Positions 399-12,962 are shown, counted from the first letter of the stretch. The stretch: 32,000 nucleotides of DNA from Methanocaldococcus jannaschii DSM 2661 (GCF_000091665.1 NC_000909.1:940712-972711); one strand, 5' to 3'. The notes: generated by a model not told the origin, from the sequence alone. Program-made: numbers and translations.

Positions 399-515
399 TC
401 ATATCATTTTTTTGCCAGTAATTAAAAAGTATATCTCTTTTCTAAAGTCATTTGCAGAATTTTCGCATCTTTCTAAATATTTTCCTATATTGGTTAGCTC
501 ATTCACAATAGCAAC
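399..515 (-). pseudogene. phoU: PhoU C-terminal remnant (third fragment of a broken phoU)
   Basis: Own translation: VAIVNELTNIGKYLERCENSANDFRKEIYFLITGKKMI*. This resembles the conserved PhoU C-terminal RyLERigDhatNia...y..tG block. Same reading phase as the 756..1148 ORF, different from 517..759. Confidence 0.5.
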
Positions 516-516
516 A

Positions 517-626
517 TTATAGTTTTTGCAAAACATTTTGAAATATATAGGATATATATGAACGCCCCCAAGTGGGGGCGTTCAAATTTTTATTTTTAAT
601 TTTAATAACTTTTGCAAAAACTATAA
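517..626. repeat. Palindromic element copy E1 (about 110 bp): 17-bp outer arms plus an 11-bp-stem central hairpin
   Basis: Arms TTATAGTTTTTGCAAAA 517-533 and TTTTGCAAAAACTATAA 610-626 are perfect reverse complements. Central TGAACGCCCCC(559-569)-AAGT-GGGGGCGTTCA(574-584). Arms and hairpin share the same symmetry centre (571.5). Confidence 0.8.
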
Positions 627-759
627 ACACATCTTCAAAAATCTTTCTTGCTAAGTATCTTTGAAACTCTTCATAAAATATCTTTTCAATTTCTCTGTGT
701 AGTTTATATATCTCATCAATTTTATTTATATCTTCATTTATGTAAGAAGAAATACTCAA
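517..759 (-). CDS. PhoU-family fragment (start of second PhoU repeat); its 3' third is read through a palindromic element
   Basis: ORF track 80 aa. EDINKIDEIYKLHREI resembles the D..iD helix of a PhoU repeat. The ATGA overlap with the upstream ORF (stop 758-756, ATG 759-757) indicates a frame break. The tail ...NLNAPTWGRSYISYIF... is encoded by the hairpin element. Confidence 0.45.
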   Translation of the reverse strand: MSISSYINEDINKIDEIYKLHREIEKIFYEEFQRYLARKIFEDVFIVFAKVIKIKNKNLNAPTWGRSYISYIFQNVLQKL

Positions 760-1148
760 TAAATTATCTCCTCAGTTAAAGAAGCCATTCTTTTTATGTA
801 TTTGTCATTTCTATCAAAATTAAATTTTGAATTTAGCAGAACAAAACTTATCTTTACGGCACATTCTTCAATTTTTTCCAACATTGAACACAATTTTATA
901 ATTGTTAGCAATTTTCTTAAATCTTTTGAGACGGGTCTATATAGGCATAGAGCTTTTACTGAATACATCTCCAATGACTCTAAATTTTTGATTATGTTAT
1001 TGTTTTTATAAATTACCAAATTACAGATGTCTTTTTTGTTTGTGCAGTATCCTTCAACACTAAGATTTAGATTTTTTATTATTTCTTCCCCTAATAGCTC
1101 TATTTTTCTATCCATCTCATTTACTATGTCATCAAATTTTTTTGGCAT
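756..1148 (-). CDS. phoU: PhoU-family protein, N-terminal repeat (130 aa fragment)
   Basis: ORF track. RPVSKDLRKLLTIIKLCSMLEKIEECAVKIS matches the PhoU motif P.a.DLR....ki..dlERigD.a.nia. It lies directly downstream of pstB in the same orientation. Confidence 0.7.
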   Translation of the reverse strand: MPKKFDDIVNEMDRKIELLGEEIIKNLNLSVEGYCTNKKDICNLVIYKNNNIIKNLESLEMYSVKALCLYRPVSKDLRKLLTIIKLCSMLEKIEECAVKISFVLLNSKFNFDRNDKYIKRMASLTEEIIY

Positions 1149-1214
1149 AAATATCCCTCAATAAGTATAAAAGTTCATATTTTGTGATTAATTAAAAAAT
1201 TTTGATGATGATAC

Positions 1215-1973
1215 TTAACCAAACCTACCACTAATGTAGTCATCTGTCTCCTTCTTCTGTGGATTTAGGAATATCTGCTCTGTCTCTCCAAACTCAATTA
1301 ATTTCCCCATTAAGAAAAAGGCAGTGTAATCAGAAACCCTACTTGCCTGCTGCATGTTGTGGGTAACAACAACAATCGTATAATCTTTAGCTAACTCAAC
1401 CATTAACTCCTCTATCTTTAATGTGGAGATAGGGTCTAAGGCAGATGTTGGTTCATCCATCAATAAAACCTCTGGCTTAACTGCTATCGCTCTCGCTATA
1501 CATAACCTCTGCTGTTGTCCTCCAGAGAGAGATAAAGCGTTTTTATGCAGTTCATCTTTAACCTCATCCCACAAAGCCGCTTTCTTTAAAGCCCACTCAA
1601 CAATCTTATCCAATTCTTTTTTATCCTTAATTCCATGAATTCTTGGGCCAAATGCAACATTATCATAGATGCTCATAGCAAAAGGATTTGGCTTTTGAAA
1701 TACCATTCCTACTCTCTTTCTCAACTCATAAACATCAACATCCTTATCATAGATATTTTTTCCATCCAATAAAACCTCTCCCTCTATTCTAACATTTGGA
1801 ATTAAATCATTTAGCCTATTTAAGCATCTTAAAAATGTTGATTTACCACATCCACTTGGCCCTATTAAGGCAGTTATTTTATTCTCATAGATTGGGAGAT
1901 TTATATCAAATAACGCCTGCTTTTCCCCATACCACAAATTTAGGTTTTTTGTTTCCATCTTCACCTTTGTCAT
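1215..1973 (-). CDS. pstB: Phosphate ABC transporter ATP-binding protein PstB
   Basis: Walker [10 protein letters not shown], signature LSGGQQQRL, Walker [12 protein letters not shown]. The typical PstB N-terminus and C-terminal YISGRFG are present. Confidence 0.95.
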
Positions 1974-2003
1974 TTCTATCCCTTTTTTATATTTTATAAA
2001 ATT

Positions 2004-2849
2004 TTATAATTTTATATCATCCTTTAAAGCATATCTTATCGGAACAAATATTGCTAAAAATATTATAAGCATTACTAAAGCCGCTCCCCATGCCATCTGG
2101 TGGTCTTCTATAGAAGGACTTTGAACTAATGTATAGATGAGGAGAGGAATTGCTCCAACTGGCTCTAATGGATTTGTTGGATAGACCTCATACAACCCTC
2201 CTGCAGTAAATAGTAGAGGAGCTGTTTCTCCAGCAACCTTTGCCATACCAATTAAAATTCCTGTTAAAATTCCTTTTTTAGCCATCTTCGTAATAACTTT
2301 GAATATTACTTGTGCCCTTGTGCATCCTAACGCATAACCTCCTTCTTTATAAATCTTTGGGACTTCTGCCATCGCTTCTTCTGTATAAACTGCAACATAA
2401 GGAGTTAATATTAAAGCTAAAGCCAAAGCCCCAGCTAATGCTGAAAAAGTTCCCATAGGAACAACTAACATACCCATGACAAATGTACCAACCAGTATAG
2501 TTGGGAATTCTAACATTATCTGCAGTAACATCTTTGTAGCTCTTCCAATAAAGCTGTTTGGGAATTCATAGGCATAAGCTCCAGCTAAGAAAGCTAAAGG
2601 TAAGCCAATTAAAGTCGCTAAGAATGTGAGCATTAAAGTCCCAACTATTGCCGGACCTATTCCTCCCTCACTCAACGTTCCAGTTATGAAAGTTAAGCCC
2701 CTTTCCATTATTATTGGTAGTCCTTTTTCAACAATTGAAATTATTATATGGAATAAAGGGAGTATTGCCAATAAAGTTAATGCCCCAACAATAAATAGAA
2801 ATATCTTATCTTTAATCATTCTAATGGTTTTATGTTTAATGGGAGACAT
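2004..2849 (-). CDS. pstA: Phosphate ABC transporter permease PstA
   Basis: Polytopic membrane protein, second permease of the pstSCAB order. It overlaps pstC by 14 nt. GGTGGAG SD lies before the ATG. Confidence 0.9.
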   Translation of the reverse strand: MSPIKHKTIRMIKDKIFLFIVGALTLLAILPLFHIIISIVEKGLPIIMERGLTFITGTLSEGGIGPAIVGTLMLTFLATLIGLPLAFLAGAYAYEFPNSFIGRATKMLLQIMLEFPTILVGTFVMGMLVVPMGTFSALAGALALALILTPYVAVYTEEAMAEVPKIYKEGGYALGCTRAQVIFKVITKMAKKGILTGILIGMAKVAGETAPLLFTAGGLYEVYPTNPLEPVGAIPLLIYTLVQSPSIEDHQMAWGAALVMLIIFLAIFVPIRYALKDDIKL

Positions 2850-3774
2850 GCTCTCTCCACCTCTTCAAATAATAAATTCCAATGATATTAACAACCAATC
2901 CTATAACAAACAGCACTAAACCAGCAGAGTAGAGGACAGAAGTCATATACTCATACAACACTGCATTTCCAAATTGATTTGCTATCAATGATGATATTGT
3001 ATATCCTGGAGCAAAGAGCTTGTAAGTTAGGTTGAAGGAGTTTCCAATAACCAGTGAAACAGCAACTGTTTCTCCTAAAGCCCTACCAAAAGCCAATATA
3101 AGCCCTGAAATTATGGCTGGTCTTATGTATTTTATTAAAACCTTTGTGGTTTCATATCTTGTTGCTCCTAAAGCAACTAAACCCTCTTTATAAACAGATG
3201 GAATCATTGCATAAGCCTCTCTAATAATAGCTGCTGCAAATGGAGTAACCATTATTCCCAACAAAATTCCTGCTGATAGATAGCAATAACCTGATAATGG
3301 AGGGTAATCAAAGAGTGGAATAAATGAAAAATGTTCATACAAAAATTTCATAATATGGTCTCTTAACAGAGGGACTAATATGAATGCTCCCCATATACCA
3401 TAAATTATTGTTGGAAGTCCTGCCATAATATCTGAAATTACAATTAAAGGATATTTCAGTCTTTTAGGAGCATAATCATTGACAAATATTGCATAGCATA
3501 TAGATAGAGGCAAAGCTATTAAAACAGCAATTGTTGCTGTATATATACTACCCCAAATTGGCGCTGCTAATCCATAAACTTCTTTTGCAGGTTCTTCAGC
3601 CGCTTTCCAAACATTTGTTATAAATAAATCAATACCATATCTCTCAATAGCTGGGAGTGCATTGAAGAAATAAAAGCCTAATATTAAAACAAATAATATA
3701 AACACAACAAATATTGCTGGTAATGTTATTATTTTGAATTCATCTATCTTTCTTAGGAGTTTTTTAATCTCCAT
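2836..3774 (-). CDS. pstC: Phosphate ABC transporter permease PstC
   Basis: Polytopic membrane protein immediately after pstS. The ORF track begins at TTG 3783. I prefer ATG 3774-3772 (MEIKKLLRK...), preceded by an AGGTTGA SD-like sequence. Confidence 0.9.
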   Translation of the reverse strand: MEIKKLLRKIDEFKIITLPAIFVVFILFVLILGFYFFNALPAIERYGIDLFITNVWKAAEEPAKEVYGLAAPIWGSIYTATIAVLIALPLSICYAIFVNDYAPKRLKYPLIVISDIMAGLPTIIYGIWGAFILVPLLRDHIMKFLYEHFSFIPLFDYPPLSGYCYLSAGILLGIMVTPFAAAIIREAYAMIPSVYKEGLVALGATRYETTKVLIKYIRPAIISGLILAFGRALGETVAVSLVIGNSFNLTYKLFAPGYTISSLIANQFGNAVLYEYMTSVLYSAGLVLFVIGLVVNIIGIYYLKRWREHVSH

Positions 3775-3924
3775 GGTTTTCAACCTTTTTTAATCCTTAT
3801 CTTATGGCTTTTATAAGTTCTATTTTAATAAGACTTTCGCAGGATTAAATAATTGTAACATTGTATATTGCTTAATAAAAATATTATTCCCAAATATAAA
3901 ATTTCTTATCTTTAAATTTGGATT

Positions 3925-3941
3925 TAAAAAATATTAAAAAA
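3925..3941 (-). terminator. Oligo-T tracts right after the pstS stop (candidate intra-operon terminator/attenuator)
   Basis: The plus strand shows A6-7 runs at 3925-3931 and 3936-3941. These are T-runs on the coding (minus) strand 7-25 nt after the pstS stop at 3950-3948. Archaeal terminators are oligo-T. Confidence 0.4.
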
Positions 3942-3947
3942 TTAGAT

Positions 3948-5081
3948 TTATTCTTTTATCATATTTACAGCATTTAATCCAATCTTAGCAACATCTTCTG
4001 GTAATCCTACATAACCTGGAGCTAAATGCTCTGGTTTCTGCCCTTCTGTTAATACCCATGTTAAGAAATCTTTTATAGCTTTAGCTTTTTCTGGAGAGTA
4101 GTGCTTACCATTTTTGTTTTCCCAAACTAATAAGTGTGTGAATGCAACTATTGGATAGGCATTGTCTCCAGGGGCATCCAACATCTGCTTTAAATCCTCT
4201 TTGTATCCTTCTGTTGGGTTTGGAATACTTGCCTTAACTGCTGAAACTGCTGCTTTTATTGTTTCATCTGTTGGTTTAACAAATTTACCATTTTTGTTTT
4301 CTAATGCTGCAACTGGAAGTTTTTGTTCTATTGCATATGAAAGCTCAGTATATGCAACTGTATAAGGCGTTGATTTCACTATTGCTACAACACCTGGATT
4401 TCCTTTTCCAGCGACTCCCCTGCCTATATTATCAGTTGGCCAATTAACAGTTTTTCCAGCTCCAACTTTTTCAGCCCATTCCTTACTAATTAAGCTTAGA
4501 TATGTTGTAAATATGGCGGTTGTTCCACTTGCGTCACTTCTATGAACAACGATAATCTTCTCATGTGGGAGTTTATCAGCAATTTCTGGGTTTATTTTTT
4601 TAATTCTTTCATCGTCCCAGTATTCAATCTTACCTAAGAATATATCAGCTAAAACATCCCTACTCAATTTTAAAGTTTTATCTCCAATTTCTGGGATGTT
4701 GTAGGTTACAACCACAGCACCAACAATTTCTGGGAATTGTAATGGTTGGTCTCCTGTTGATAAGAATTTCTTCCACATGCTTTCTTTAACTGGAGGGTCA
4801 GTTCTTCCAATATCAGTTAAACCTTTTGCAAATGCCTCTTGCCCGTATCCTGAACCTCCTCCCTCATACTCAATCTTGACATTAGGATGGGTTTTTTGAT
4901 AATCTTCAATCCATTTCTGGATTTGGTATTTTGGGAATGTTGCCCCTGTAGTCCTAATTATTATGGTACTTGGTTTTTCATTATTTGACGGTTGAGAATT
5001 ACCTCCACCAACACATCCAGCTATTGAAATTACTGGGACTATTAAACACAGCCCCAATATTAATGCCAATATTTTTTTCAC
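3948..5081 (-). CDS. pstS: Phosphate-binding lipoprotein PstS
   Basis: Periplasmic-binding-protein sequence with a signal peptide and lipobox (KKILALILGLCLIVPVISIAGC). The ORF track starts at TTG 5117. GTG 5081-5079 is preceded by GGTGAT (5090-5085), so I place the start there. Confidence 0.9.
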   Translation of the reverse strand: MKKILALILGLCLIVPVISIAGCVGGGNSQPSNNEKPSTIIIRTTGATFPKYQIQKWIEDYQKTHPNVKIEYEGGGSGYGQEAFAKGLTDIGRTDPPVKESMWKKFLSTGDQPLQFPEIVGAVVVTYNIPEIGDKTLKLSRDVLADIFLGKIEYWDDERIKKINPEIADKLPHEKIIVVHRSDASGTTAIFTTYLSLISKEWAEKVGAGKTVNWPTDNIGRGVAGKGNPGVVAIVKSTPYTVAYTELSYAIEQKLPVAALENKNGKFVKPTDETIKAAVSAVKASIPNPTEGYKEDLKQMLDAPGDNAYPIVAFTHLLVWENKNGKHYSPEKAKAIKDFLTWVLTEGQKPEHLAPGYVGLPEDVAKIGLNAVNMIKE

Positions 5082-5102
5082 AGCATCACCTTTTGTAGGT
5101 TG

Positions 5103-5214
5103 TGTGGTGTCATTCAAAACTTTTTTAATGATTTAAGGTATAGATGAACGCCTTCTAAAAGAAGGCGTTCAAAATTTTCATTAGTAGATTTTGTTATTTT
5201 TGAATGACACCATA
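5103..5214. repeat. Palindromic element copy E2 (108-112 bp) in the pstS upstream region
   Basis: Arms TGGTGTCATTCAAAA 5105-5119 and TTTTGAATGACACCA 5198-5212 are a perfect 15-bp inverted repeat (17 bp with one mismatch). Central TGAACGCCTTC(5145-5155)-TAAAA-GAAGGCGTTCA(5161-5171). Shared symmetry centre about 5158. Confidence 0.8.
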
Positions 5215-5347
5215 ATTTACAATAGATTGTAAGATACATAAAGGTATATAAAGTTTTCTATTTTGAATTAAAGTTCATATTTTATGAACATTCAATTTTA
5301 ATAGTTAAAAACTCAATATAAAAAGTAAAACACTTCTTTGTGAAACC

Positions 5348-10493: not shown

Positions 10494-10531
10494 TAGTGTC
10501 TTTCAAAAATTCTTAAAATAATAAGACACTA
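10494..10531. terminator. Hairpin between convergent genes (possible bidirectional terminator)
   Basis: TAGTGTCTT 10494-10502 pairs with AAGACACTA 10523-10531 (9 bp). The right arm overlaps the stop codon of the 10529..11020 ORF. Flanks are AT-rich. Confidence 0.35.
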
Positions 10532-11140: not shown

Positions 11141-11260
11141 GAGGGCTGTCTGACCCAGCCCGATGAGCTGAACCTGCCCTGTGACCTACCGGCGACGGTA
11201 GGGAGAAGGGTGTTCCCCGTGGGAACCTCCGAGCTTTAGCTCGGAGAGGAGGTCAGCTTT
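11141..11260 (+). ncRNA. GC-rich structured small RNA of unknown family (high-GC island in an AT-rich hyperthermophile genome)
   Basis: 74 of 116 nt (11141-11256) are G/C by hand count. There are four hairpins inside a closing helix, a GCGA tetraloop, G-U pairs that only work on the plus strand, an upstream TATA box and a 3' T-run (11258-11261). Confidence 0.65.
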
Positions 11261-12962
11261 TAACATTTCTTATATTTACTAAAGCTCCATGCTTTGCCTT
11301 TTTCATTTCAAAACCACTCATCAAAGCTCTTCCAATCCCTAAAAATGTATCATCTTTAATTAAGACGACTTCATCATTATAGGAAATATTTTCATTGCAA
11401 TCAACAAATCCGGGAGGAAAGAGAGAACCTTTTTTAATTTCATAATTTACTTCAATATAGTTGATGTCTTTTCCCCCACTGTTCCACAACAACTCTCCCC
11501 CACTTAAGGTTAAGATAAGCAAACCATTTTTTGGATTTATTGATGCTATTTGTTGATTTTTATTGTTAATTTTTGTAAATATTTGCCCCTTATGATTTAT
11601 AAATATTTCGTTTGGTATAAAGTTTATGCCAAATTGAAACTCTGCAAGTTGCTGAATATTATGAATTCTTTGTCCCTTTTTATTTATATCTTTACTTTTT
11701 GTTAGTTCTTTATACTTTTTTAGTGTGTCAGTTAAATTTTTTAAAGCTTCTTCTGATGTTGGATTTCCTTTTGATGTAATAACAATATCATCCAACTCCA
11801 AAATCTCAAGGTAGTGTTCTGGAAGATGAGCTATAACAATATAATCATCAAATTTCTCCTTAACCTTCTTTAAGAAGTTTTTTAAACAGTTGTTTATAAG
11901 CTCTATCTCTTCAAAACTCCATTCTCCAGTTACTGGAATGTCATAATTGACTAACCTTTCCAAAGCTCTCGGCACTAATCCGTAGGGAGATGTTAATATA
12001 ACTTCCTCAACAACAACTTTTGCAGATTTTATCGCCTTTATAAATTTTTGGTGAGATTGGGAAATTGAGTAGGGCTTTTTTGATGAGCAAGGTAATAAAA
12101 CTATAATGTTTGAATACGGCTCATAGTTATCTAATCTTTCCAAATATTTTTTAACCTCTGGAATATTAATGTTGGTTGTTACAATAATCTTATTTTCTTT
12201 TGATAACGGGATGTTTCTTAAATCTGGCTCATATCTTCTATAATTTGCCCACAAATATGGATGAGATACAGCTGTTTCTTCAACAACATTTCTTAGAAAT
12301 CCATTTTTTATAGCTATCCTAACTTCTTCTAAGATTTCCTCATAAACTTTTTTATTGTTATTATATAATTCCTCAAAACTAAAGCTATCTACCTTTACAG
12401 CCCTATTTTTTGTAAATTTGTAGCCCATTGATGCATATAACTTAGCTAATGAGTCATCAAAGTAATCAACGCCTATATAAGCCAATAGTGGAATTTCCCA
12501 AGGAAATACAGCTGGGGAGTAAATAGCTGAGTTTGGAGATATTTTTTCTCTAATTTTTGGTATTATTTGAAGTTCTTTTCTTTCTATCAACCTTCTACCA
12601 TCTGCTATGATATATAAATCAGCATCTTCCAATTCAATTAAATCAACGTGCTTACCAAAGTTTAGTATTTGATATTTAAATACATTACCCTTATATTTAA
12701 CAGTTCCAATAAAAGATTTTTTAAATATTGAGGTTAGTTCTCTAAATGTATCAAAAGGCATCTTTATGCCATCAGCTTTAACATAGGACTTTCGCAGTTC
12801 ATATATGGATTTGGAATTTGGACACCTAAAAGGTGTCATTATACCATAAAAAATTTTTTCCTGCGAAAGTCCTATGACATCAATGTCAATTAGCTTAGGG
12901 GTTAGTTCTTTATCTTCCTCTTTGCACAGTCTTCCAATATCATAGGCAATTGGTTCGAGCAT
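11253..12962 (-). CDS. arcS: Archaeosine synthase ArcS (tRNA preQ0-15 modifying enzyme), with C-terminal PUA domain
   Basis: The ArcS signature PC-X3-KPY-X2-S-X2-H is present as PCSSKKPYSISQSH. The C-terminal PUA-like domain is ...VVLIKDDTFLGIGRALMSGFEMKKAKHGALVNIRNV. Confidence 0.85.
   Translation of the reverse strand: MLEPIAYDIGRLCKEEDKELTPKLIDIDVIGLSQEKIFYGIMTPFRCPNSKSIYELRKSYVKADGIKMPFDTFRELTSIFKKSFIGTVKYKGNVFKYQILNFGKHVDLIELEDADLYIIADGRRLIERKELQIIPKIREKISPNSAIYSPAVFPWEIPLLAYIGVDYFDDSLAKLYASMGYKFTKNRAVKVDSFSFEELYNNNKKVYEEILEEVRIAIKNGFLRNVVEETAVSHPYLWANYRRYEPDLRNIPLSKENKIIVTTNINIPEVKKYLERLDNYEPYSNIIVLLPCSSKKPYSISQSHQKFIKAIKSAKVVVEEVILTSPYGLVPRALERLVNYDIPVTGEWSFEEIELINNCLKNFLKKVKEKFDDYIVIAHLPEHYLEILELDDIVITSKGNPTSEEALKNLTDTLKKYKELTKSKDINKKGQRIHNIQQLAEFQFGINFIPNEIFINHKGQIFTKINNKNQQIASINPKNGLLILTLSGGELLWNSGGKDINYIEVNYEIKKGSLFPPGFVDCNENISYNDEVVLIKDDTFLGIGRALMSGFEMKKAKHGALVNIRNVKS
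12782..12876. repeat. Palindromic element copy E3 (95 bp) inside the arcS coding sequence
   Basis: CATAGGACTTTCGCAG 12782-12797 and CTGCGAAAGTCCTATG 12861-12876 are a perfect 16-bp inverted repeat. Central GACACC(12821-26)-TAAAA-GGTGTC(12832-37). Spacers are 23 nt each and the symmetry centre is 12829. Confidence 0.8.

Follow-up and report, generated by a model that had tools for sequence, protein, structure and literature searches.

The 32,000-nucleotide stretch of Methanocaldococcus jannaschii DSM 2661 DNA analysed here (GCF_000091665.1 NC_000909.1:940712-972711; the window, with positions counted from its first letter) carries a pst operon on its minus strand, with pstS, pstC, pstA, pstB and the remains of phoU, and two palindromic elements, E1 and E2, which together span positions 517-5214 (Table 1). 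Both elements follow a common three-part plan of an outer inverted repeat, spacers and a central hairpin. The arms of E1 form the longest inverted repeat of the window (517-570 and 573-626; 54 nucleotides, 78% complementary), the outermost 17 nucleotides of which are perfect (517-533 and 610-626), and its GC-rich central stem of 11 bp (TGAACGCCCCC/GGGGGCGTTCA) shares their centre at 571.5. The outer 15 nucleotides of E2 are likewise perfect (5105-5119 and 5198-5212), and its two centres, 5158.5 for the arms and 5158.0 for the hairpin, lie 0.5 nucleotides apart. The 32 kb contain exactly two occurrences of the core TGAACGCC N GGCGTTCA, against 0.00 expected from 100 shuffles, and the inner stem reads CCC/GGG in E1 versus TTC/GAA in E2. 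Left spacers agree at 16 of 25 positions (64%) and the spacers lack self-complementarity, with overall symmetry of 84/110 in E1 and 60/112 in E2. Direct reading thus bears out the original prediction, made from the DNA of the window alone, which had described palindromes of one plan with perfect arms of 15-17 nucleotides, coincident centres, an 11-bp central stem identical in its outer part and different yet complementary in its inner part, and spacers lacking self-complementarity, the left ones about 64% identical. With RNA parameters, the predicted folding energy at 85 °C is -8.1 kcal/mol for E1 and -6.4 kcal/mol for E2, compared with about 0 for shuffles. No family matching E1 or E2 was found in Rfam.

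Table 1. Elements, genes and related features, in window positions, with the arm subfamilies of the repeat family (MITE, miniature inverted-repeat transposable element; SD, Shine-Dalgarno sequence)
Feature	Position	Strand	Description
E1	520-623	+	104-bp MITE-like element in phoU; subfamily A termini TAGTTTTTGCAAAA; covariance model 101 bits
E1 orientation		+	Reads ATGAACGCC...GGCGTTCAAA
E1 left TA target-site duplication	518-519		Partner 624-625; empty site ATTAAA, i.e. T/TA/A
E1 right TA target-site duplication	624-625		From filled/empty comparison
E1 central GC-rich hairpin	559-584		TGAACGCCCCCA AG TGGGGGCGTTCA; kept in predicted RNA fold at 85 °C
E2	5105-5212	+	108 bp, pstS 5' leader; termini TGGTGTCATTCAAAA, subfamily B derivative; covariance model 105 bits
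E2 left flank	5103-5104		Degenerate TG, presumed mutated TA duplication
E2 right flank	5213-5214		TA
E2 central hairpin	5145-5171		TGAACGCCTTCT AAA AGAAGGCGTTCA
phoU pseudogene	399-1148	-	Two lesions: E1 and a 1-bp deletion near 756-760
phoU fragment	756-1148	-	MJ1011, 130 residues; Pfam PhoU match
phoU fragment	626-759	-	Part of database 80-residue 'hypothetical protein'
phoU fragment	399-517	-	Beyond E1
pstB	1215-1973	-	pst operon
pstA	2004-2849	-	pst operon
pstC	2836-3783	-	pst operon
pstS	3948-5081	-	pst operon; true start GTG 5081; SD GGTGAT 5085-5090; lipoprotein signal ending IAGC
pstS TATA box	5245-5252	-	TTTATATA, conserved; upstream of insertion point
38-bp internally deleted derivative	10494-10531	+	TAGTGTCTT...AAGACACTA, TA on left; between convergent genes
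Arm subfamily A			TAGTTTTT(T)GCAAAA
Arm subfamily B			TAGTGTCTTTCAAAA
Arm subfamily B'			TAGTGTTTTTCAAAA
Arm subfamily C			TAGTTGTGTGCAAAA
Arm subfamily E2			TGGTGTCATTCAAAA

E1 interrupts a gene whose intact form can be read elsewhere. The PhoU reading of M. jannaschii is split over three different frames, whereas an intact metagenomic orthologue (P0001; 214 residues, 82% identical over its full length) reads ...RKIFEDVFNVAIVNELTNVGKYLE... without a break. At the insertion point the orthologous locus (L121) has GAAGATGTATTCAATGTTGCT, and in the DNA alignment the insert sits between TT and AT of an ancestral TTTAAT. Among all the deletions tried, EDVFNVAIVNEL is regained in the window only by those of exactly 106 bp (518-623 and its TA-slid equivalents), which also restore the EDVFNVA of the orthologue and the phoU frame. 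The net insert of E1 relative to the empty site is therefore 106 bp, and, judged by these alignments, the event is the arrival of a 104-bp element with duplication of TA at a T/TA/A site. It landed at codon 174/175 of the 214. An insert of 106 bp, not divisible by three, shifts the phoU frame, and the TA duplication with its flank supplies the stop at 519-517. E1 had been placed in the phoU tail at the far end of the operon it was said to bracket; the gene was named correctly, but the element does not follow the minus-strand operon and cuts its last coding sequence.

The same gene carries a second lesion, the 1-bp deletion relative to the orthologue, which falls between the two PhoU domains and recurs in many independent short-read assemblies, which rules out a sequencing error in the 1996 genome. 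On this DNA comparison the phoU of the 214-residue type is dead, through the E1 insertion and the deletion together, and the last 36 residues of the 80-residue 'hypothetical protein' are translated inserted DNA. The genus has two PhoU paralogues, of 223-224 and 214 residues. Strain FS406-22 (L487 13952-14623) and M. fervens (L488 13832-14506) have the longer type only, after pstB; the 214-residue type is found in M. jannaschii and in L121, and both stand in tandem at L125 8772-10104.

At the other end of the operon, the comparison of relatives' pst loci that had been suggested with the original prediction found the E2 site empty in FS406-22 and M. fervens, just as the E1 site is empty in the 214-residue orthologue. 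Both relatives (pstS of FS406-22 is 92% identical) have the same leader without E2, with flanks kept that include AAAACTTTATATACC and AGGTGATGCyGTG. Where they read ...GTAAATTA/GCTACAACCTACAAAAGGTGATG, M. jannaschii has ...GTAAATTA, 108 bp and then CACAACCTACAAAAGGTGATG, and the intergenic lengths differ by 108 bp. E2 thus sits between the conserved pstS TATA box, contained in the stretch AAAACTTTATATACC upstream of the insertion point, and the ribosome-binding site. The end of E2 nearest the gene lies 14 nucleotides from the Shine-Dalgarno sequence and 23 from the GTG, rather than the roughly 25 nucleotides from the Shine-Dalgarno sequence given originally. In the database, pstS encodes 389 residues from TTG 5117, a start inside E2. 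The GTG at 5081 with its preceding GGTGAT is an arrangement kept in FS406-22 and M. fervens, and this conserved start, together with the lipoprotein signal (MKKILALILGLCLIVPVISIAGC), indicates a product of 377 residues.

Transcription starts in M. jannaschii lie 23 ± 2 nucleotides from the TATA box (PMC2699501), which would place the pstS start near 5221 and E2 from about +9, and would lengthen the predicted leader from about 32 to about 140 nucleotides. In the predicted fold of this leader at 85 °C, the Shine-Dalgarno sequence is unpaired. The literature searched yielded no transcription-start data for pstS. E2 contains no TATA-like octamer with at least 7 of 8 matches in either direction and so probably brings no promoter of its own. 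Upstream of the pstS TATA box we also observed a perfect palindrome, GTTCATAAAATATGAAC (5273-5289), whose conservation extends to FS406-22 and M. fervens; phoU is preceded by a related site, AATCACAAAATATGAAC (1173-1189), and there are four such matches with up to three mismatches, compared with 0.38 expected. This palindrome is a candidate operator for a phosphate regulator.

E1 and E2 belong to a dispersed family of palindromes of about 100 bp, as had been supposed. Contigs from metagenomes matching the core motif with two bases on each side were screened with blastn and nhmmer, which left at least five real copies, and further copies came from loci fetched around orthologues. Full copies beyond E1 and E2 were found at L183, L204, L223, L228, L486, L487, L507 and, three times, L508. 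At least four of them come from vent metagenomes, that of L486 lying immediately ahead of an sppA-like gene; strain 10A has three, FS406-22 one, and strain 28A one together with a partial copy. A chimeric six-frame peptide query aimed at reading frames called over such elements gave one match (P0006), which led to a family copy. M. jannaschii itself has at least four copies or derivatives, among them the 38-bp derivative of Table 1 and a decayed copy that lies 22 nucleotides ahead of an aminotransferase gene and comes to light in a chimeric contig (L502 3290-3440), where it is joined to E1.

The copies are small (104-114 bp) and non-coding, with stops in most frames, and they occupy different loci in M. 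jannaschii, FS406-22, 10A and 28A; the site of the FS406-22 copy is empty in M. jannaschii. Their terminal inverted repeats have perfect arms of 14-15 nucleotides in E1 and E2 and 0-2 mismatches across the 11 aligned copies, 7 of which have TA at both ends, and the target was T/TA/A in 6 of 9. The sampled DNA of M. fervens (21 kb), Methanotorris formicicus (21 kb) and another Methanocaldococcus (12.5 kb) showed no copy. Searches with the core motif alone returned chance GC hairpins among the at least 120 matches listed for each of the genome and viral contig collections, and the arm motif gave chance matches only in viral contigs. Several copies lie in leaders, 13-37 nucleotides upstream of start codons. 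The neighbouring genes are unrelated (sppA, carA, trpD-like, aminotransferase and peptidase M50), and the orientation is mixed, with the left end facing the gene in at least five cases and the right end in at least three.

Short-read contigs of M. jannaschii (the ends of L489, L490 and L492, and an extension based on MJ1011) stop at E1. Joining across repeats, as seen in L502, also means that L228, whose arms combine two subfamilies, could be an assembly chimera, and we discount it as a hybrid that arose naturally. The FS406-22 copy (L487 6348-6676) lies 13 nucleotides upstream of the start of the carbamoyl-phosphate synthase small-subunit gene and, to go by a perfect TTTATATA 21 nucleotides from its outer end, may supply a promoter. 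As a general account of the family, mobile promoters were set aside: there is no conserved TATA box, E2 lacks one, and a perfect one is present only in the FS406-22 copy. In strain 10A (L508 11167-12240), pstS is not followed by pstCAB, and a family copy and a DUF772 transposase-type fragment lie downstream, an arrangement that suggests a rearranged pstS region.

On the basis of the empty sites, the target duplication and the dispersed copies, we put the probability at roughly 85% that E1 and E2 are independent, lineage-specific insertions of a non-autonomous hairpin MITE of 104-108 bp that is dispersed in Methanocaldococcus. Several points weigh against this explanation. The left flank of E2 is TG rather than TA, there are two further base differences between the filled E2 site and the empty one of FS406-22, one FS406-22 copy has one TA missing, and a sample of 11 copies falls short of a genome-wide one. 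About 185 kb of Methanocaldococcus loci and the plasmid collection yielded neither an autonomous partner nor a transposase that shares the element's ends, and the plasmids had no family match either. A dimeric sequence-specific transposase alone leaves the covarying variable positions of the arms unexplained, and the pstS transcription start is a prediction. Finally, an excess of G.T over A.C cells, described below, is a weak hint of a strand-specific (RNA or single-strand) constraint that an inserted MITE does not require.

The stems covary across the family, as had been claimed from the two copies alone. We aligned the 11 full copies, which come from four genomes and from metagenomes, to a three-helix structure and compared them with 500 shuffles: 96.9% of cells pair, versus 88.5% in shuffles, and 12 of the 33 pairs change on both sides, a number reached by none of the 500. 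Slid controls, in which the partner was moved by 1-3 columns, never exceeded 6 such pairs or 55% pairing, so the alignment of copies that had been proposed to look for compensatory change does show an excess over both kinds of control. The arms fall into subfamilies that differ at 3-5 of 15 positions, and arm mismatches average 0.55 within a copy versus 3.56 between copies. They are perfect in E1, E2, L183, L204, L486, L487 and L508b, and mismatched once each in L223, L508a and L507b and twice in L508c. Two positions of the core stem show a switch from C-G to T-A, for which L508a has a T.G intermediate. Matched subfamilies, together with decay in some copies, indicate that pairing is needed in the propagating lineage and not upheld after insertion. 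Of the two options originally offered, selection on a hairpin or cruciform is thus the better, as far as it concerns the propagating form; selection in place does not follow.

Such covariation is what would be expected if the elements were selected structured RNAs, that is, leader or trailer hairpins that stabilize or regulate mRNAs, two of which the pst operon had recruited. We consider this unlikely, even though it can also draw on the hairpin stability predicted at 85 °C, which is rare in a genome where only 1 of 134 leaders is stably structured (PMC2699501), on the copies within leaders and on the gene-sense strand of E2, which has no run of five or more T, whereas the opposite strand has T6 and T5. 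Single-sided changes are mainly G.T on one strand (10, compared with 2 A.C, among the non-Watson-Crick cells), yet this excess is weak, with p of about 0.04, rising to 0.11 when the flank columns are left out. Close relatives have the same operon without E1 or E2, E1 destroys a gene, pairing is lost after insertion in some copies, and the orientation to the neighbouring gene is mixed.

The other original option, that one arm is regenerated from the other by foldback synthesis or by mismatch correction in a cruciform or single-strand hairpin, with no selection involved, would account for arms that stay perfect in seven copies despite the differences between subfamilies, and for the compensated variants of the core. 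It fits poorly all the same, and we regard it as quite improbable: foldback copying would symmetrize the 25-nucleotide spacers, which are asymmetric, and four copies retain uncorrected arm mismatches, although correction confined to paired segments during transposition keeps some probability. Far less probable still is that E1 and E2 are functional DNA sites at the two operon ends, serving as binding sites, insulators or terminators for a phosphate-responsive factor and having GTTCA/TGAAC half-sites in common with the conserved palindrome ahead of pstS. The core does contain TGAAC...GTTCA half-sites, and the conserved palindrome GTTCATAAAATATGAAC lies 60 nucleotides upstream of E2, with its related site upstream of phoU; that palindrome is, however, present in relatives lacking both elements, family copies stand beside unrelated genes, and E1 is inside a disrupted coding sequence. 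The empty sites largely refute this idea.

Coincidence is our reading of the placement of E1 and E2 around the pst operon, which the original prediction had thought worth a look. Neither copy is present in the operon of relatives, E1 kills a gene, and the local density is high: about 8 copies in about 95 kb of the carrier genomes, or about 1 per 12 kb, makes the chance of a neighbouring copy within 4.6 kb 0.32 if one side is counted and 0.54 if either is. The genome reportedly holds 141 repeats of the MJRE type (see below) in 1.66 Mb, which, if right, gives the same density figure. The coincidence was perhaps helped by phoU being or becoming dispensable.

If E1 and E2 are MITE insertions, a DDE transposase of the IS630/Tc1-mariner type would move the element in trans; we infer the type from the TA duplication and from the ends, TA/TAGTG, those of Tc1 being TA/CAGTG. 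The element might be competent for transposition only if its ends and core pair, or if both ends are identical, and new subfamilies would hence emerge with matched arms. The arms of E1 and E2 would be perfect through youth, and a recent arrival of both is consistent with their absence from close relatives. The pstS mRNA would start about 9 nucleotides before E2 and carry its hairpin, predicted to be folded at 85 °C, in a leader of about 140 nucleotides, with the ribosome-binding site left free.

A bolder version, which we offer as speculation and think improbable, joins two proposals: that the element propagates as a folded single strand, with a machinery that reads the pairing of ends and core, and that the loss of phoU favoured the E2 insertion. 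In bacteria, loss of PhoU makes uncontrolled uptake by Pst harmful and selects for changes in pst. If the proposals were true, transposition here would depend on a hairpin and yet duplicate TA, a mode of which we know no description in archaea, and E2 would have put a predicted heat-stable hairpin into the pstS leader after PhoU was lost.

The family very probably corresponds to one of the palindromic MJRE families, reported as MJRE1-3 (Suyama, Lathe and Bork, FEBS Lett 2005; cited in PMC2229807 and PMC2996958). The likeness is one of description, not of group consensus sequences, which were not found in the literature searched: the genome is the same, and both are palindromic repeats of about 100 bp that are dispersed and mostly extragenic, with some in coding regions. 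The MJRE elements are said to number 141, to total 14.3 kb and to form three groups.

Outside the archaea, the family resembles in its working principle the Correia/NEMIS elements of Neisseria, which are non-autonomous, about 100-155 bp long, have terminal inverted repeats, a TA duplication and TATAG ends, are often found just upstream of genes and are co-transcribed as hairpins; we know of no transposase for them. They differ in being bacterial and of unrelated sequence, with 26-bp repeats and a site for integration host factor (IHF), and in lacking a GC-rich central hairpin. Promoters are shown in some Correia copies, whereas here a good TATA box close to the end is confined to one copy, that of FS406-22. 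The TA duplication and short terminal inverted repeats are also common to the MITEs of IS630/Tc1-mariner type, such as RUP of pneumococcus and Stowaway-like elements. Both targets are 4-bp palindromes, TTAA here and CTAG for IS630, and it is the TA duplication and the similarity of the ends that make the link, the sampled loci having no such transposase. REP/REPIN sequences, moved by RAYT Y1 transposases, resemble the family as hairpin repeats in which pairing rather than sequence is kept, with compensatory changes. They are 20-40 nucleotides long, carry a GTAG/CGTC tag, make no target duplication and form inverted doublets, and a single-strand intermediate has been proposed for them. Membership of the REP/REPIN-RAYT system is ruled out for E1 and E2 by the TA duplication, the three-part plan of about 108 bp and the lack of a GTAG/CGTC tag.

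The elements are mobile repeats of a known kind, in the very genome where that kind was first described. What is new (the exact empty sites, the phoU pseudogene and the misannotated pstS start, the arm subfamilies and the TA duplication at TTAA) helps annotation and offers a lead on mechanism rather than a surprise. For annotation, MJ1011 and the neighbouring 'hypothetical protein' are pieces of one dead phoU, and the annotated start of pstS falls within E2. For physiology, the type strain of M. jannaschii is without this PhoU and has a changed pstS leader, which is relevant to studies of phosphate regulation. The matched-arm subfamilies and compensated core further provide a small, clean data set with which to ask what the machinery of an archaeal TA-duplicating MITE recognizes.

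A second palindromic family is represented in the window at 12782-12876 (CATAGGACTTTCGCAG ... GACACCTAAAAGGTGTC ... CTGCGAAAGTCCTATG). This copy lies in the minus-strand gene at 11253-12962, encoding archaeosine synthase (Q58428, 569 residues), as a 96-bp in-frame insert that adds 32 residues (VIGLSQEKIFYGIMTPFRCPNSKSIYELRKSY); the orthologues of FS406-22, 10A and M. bathoardescens have 537. MJRE elements that keep coding potential have been reported, which this insert matches. Copies of the second family tend to lie in or beside those of the first (L487 6440-6645; L223 3930-4018; L507 8090-8169 and 20657-20744). The one in FS406-22 is nested, within an insert of about 205 bp with a 9-bp duplication (TAGAATAAC), another is 37 nucleotides from the L223 copy, and a further one abuts the truncated first-family copy in strain 28A. 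Elsewhere in the window, an HgcC family RNA lies at 11141-11269 on the plus strand (Rfam RF00062, 150.9 bits).

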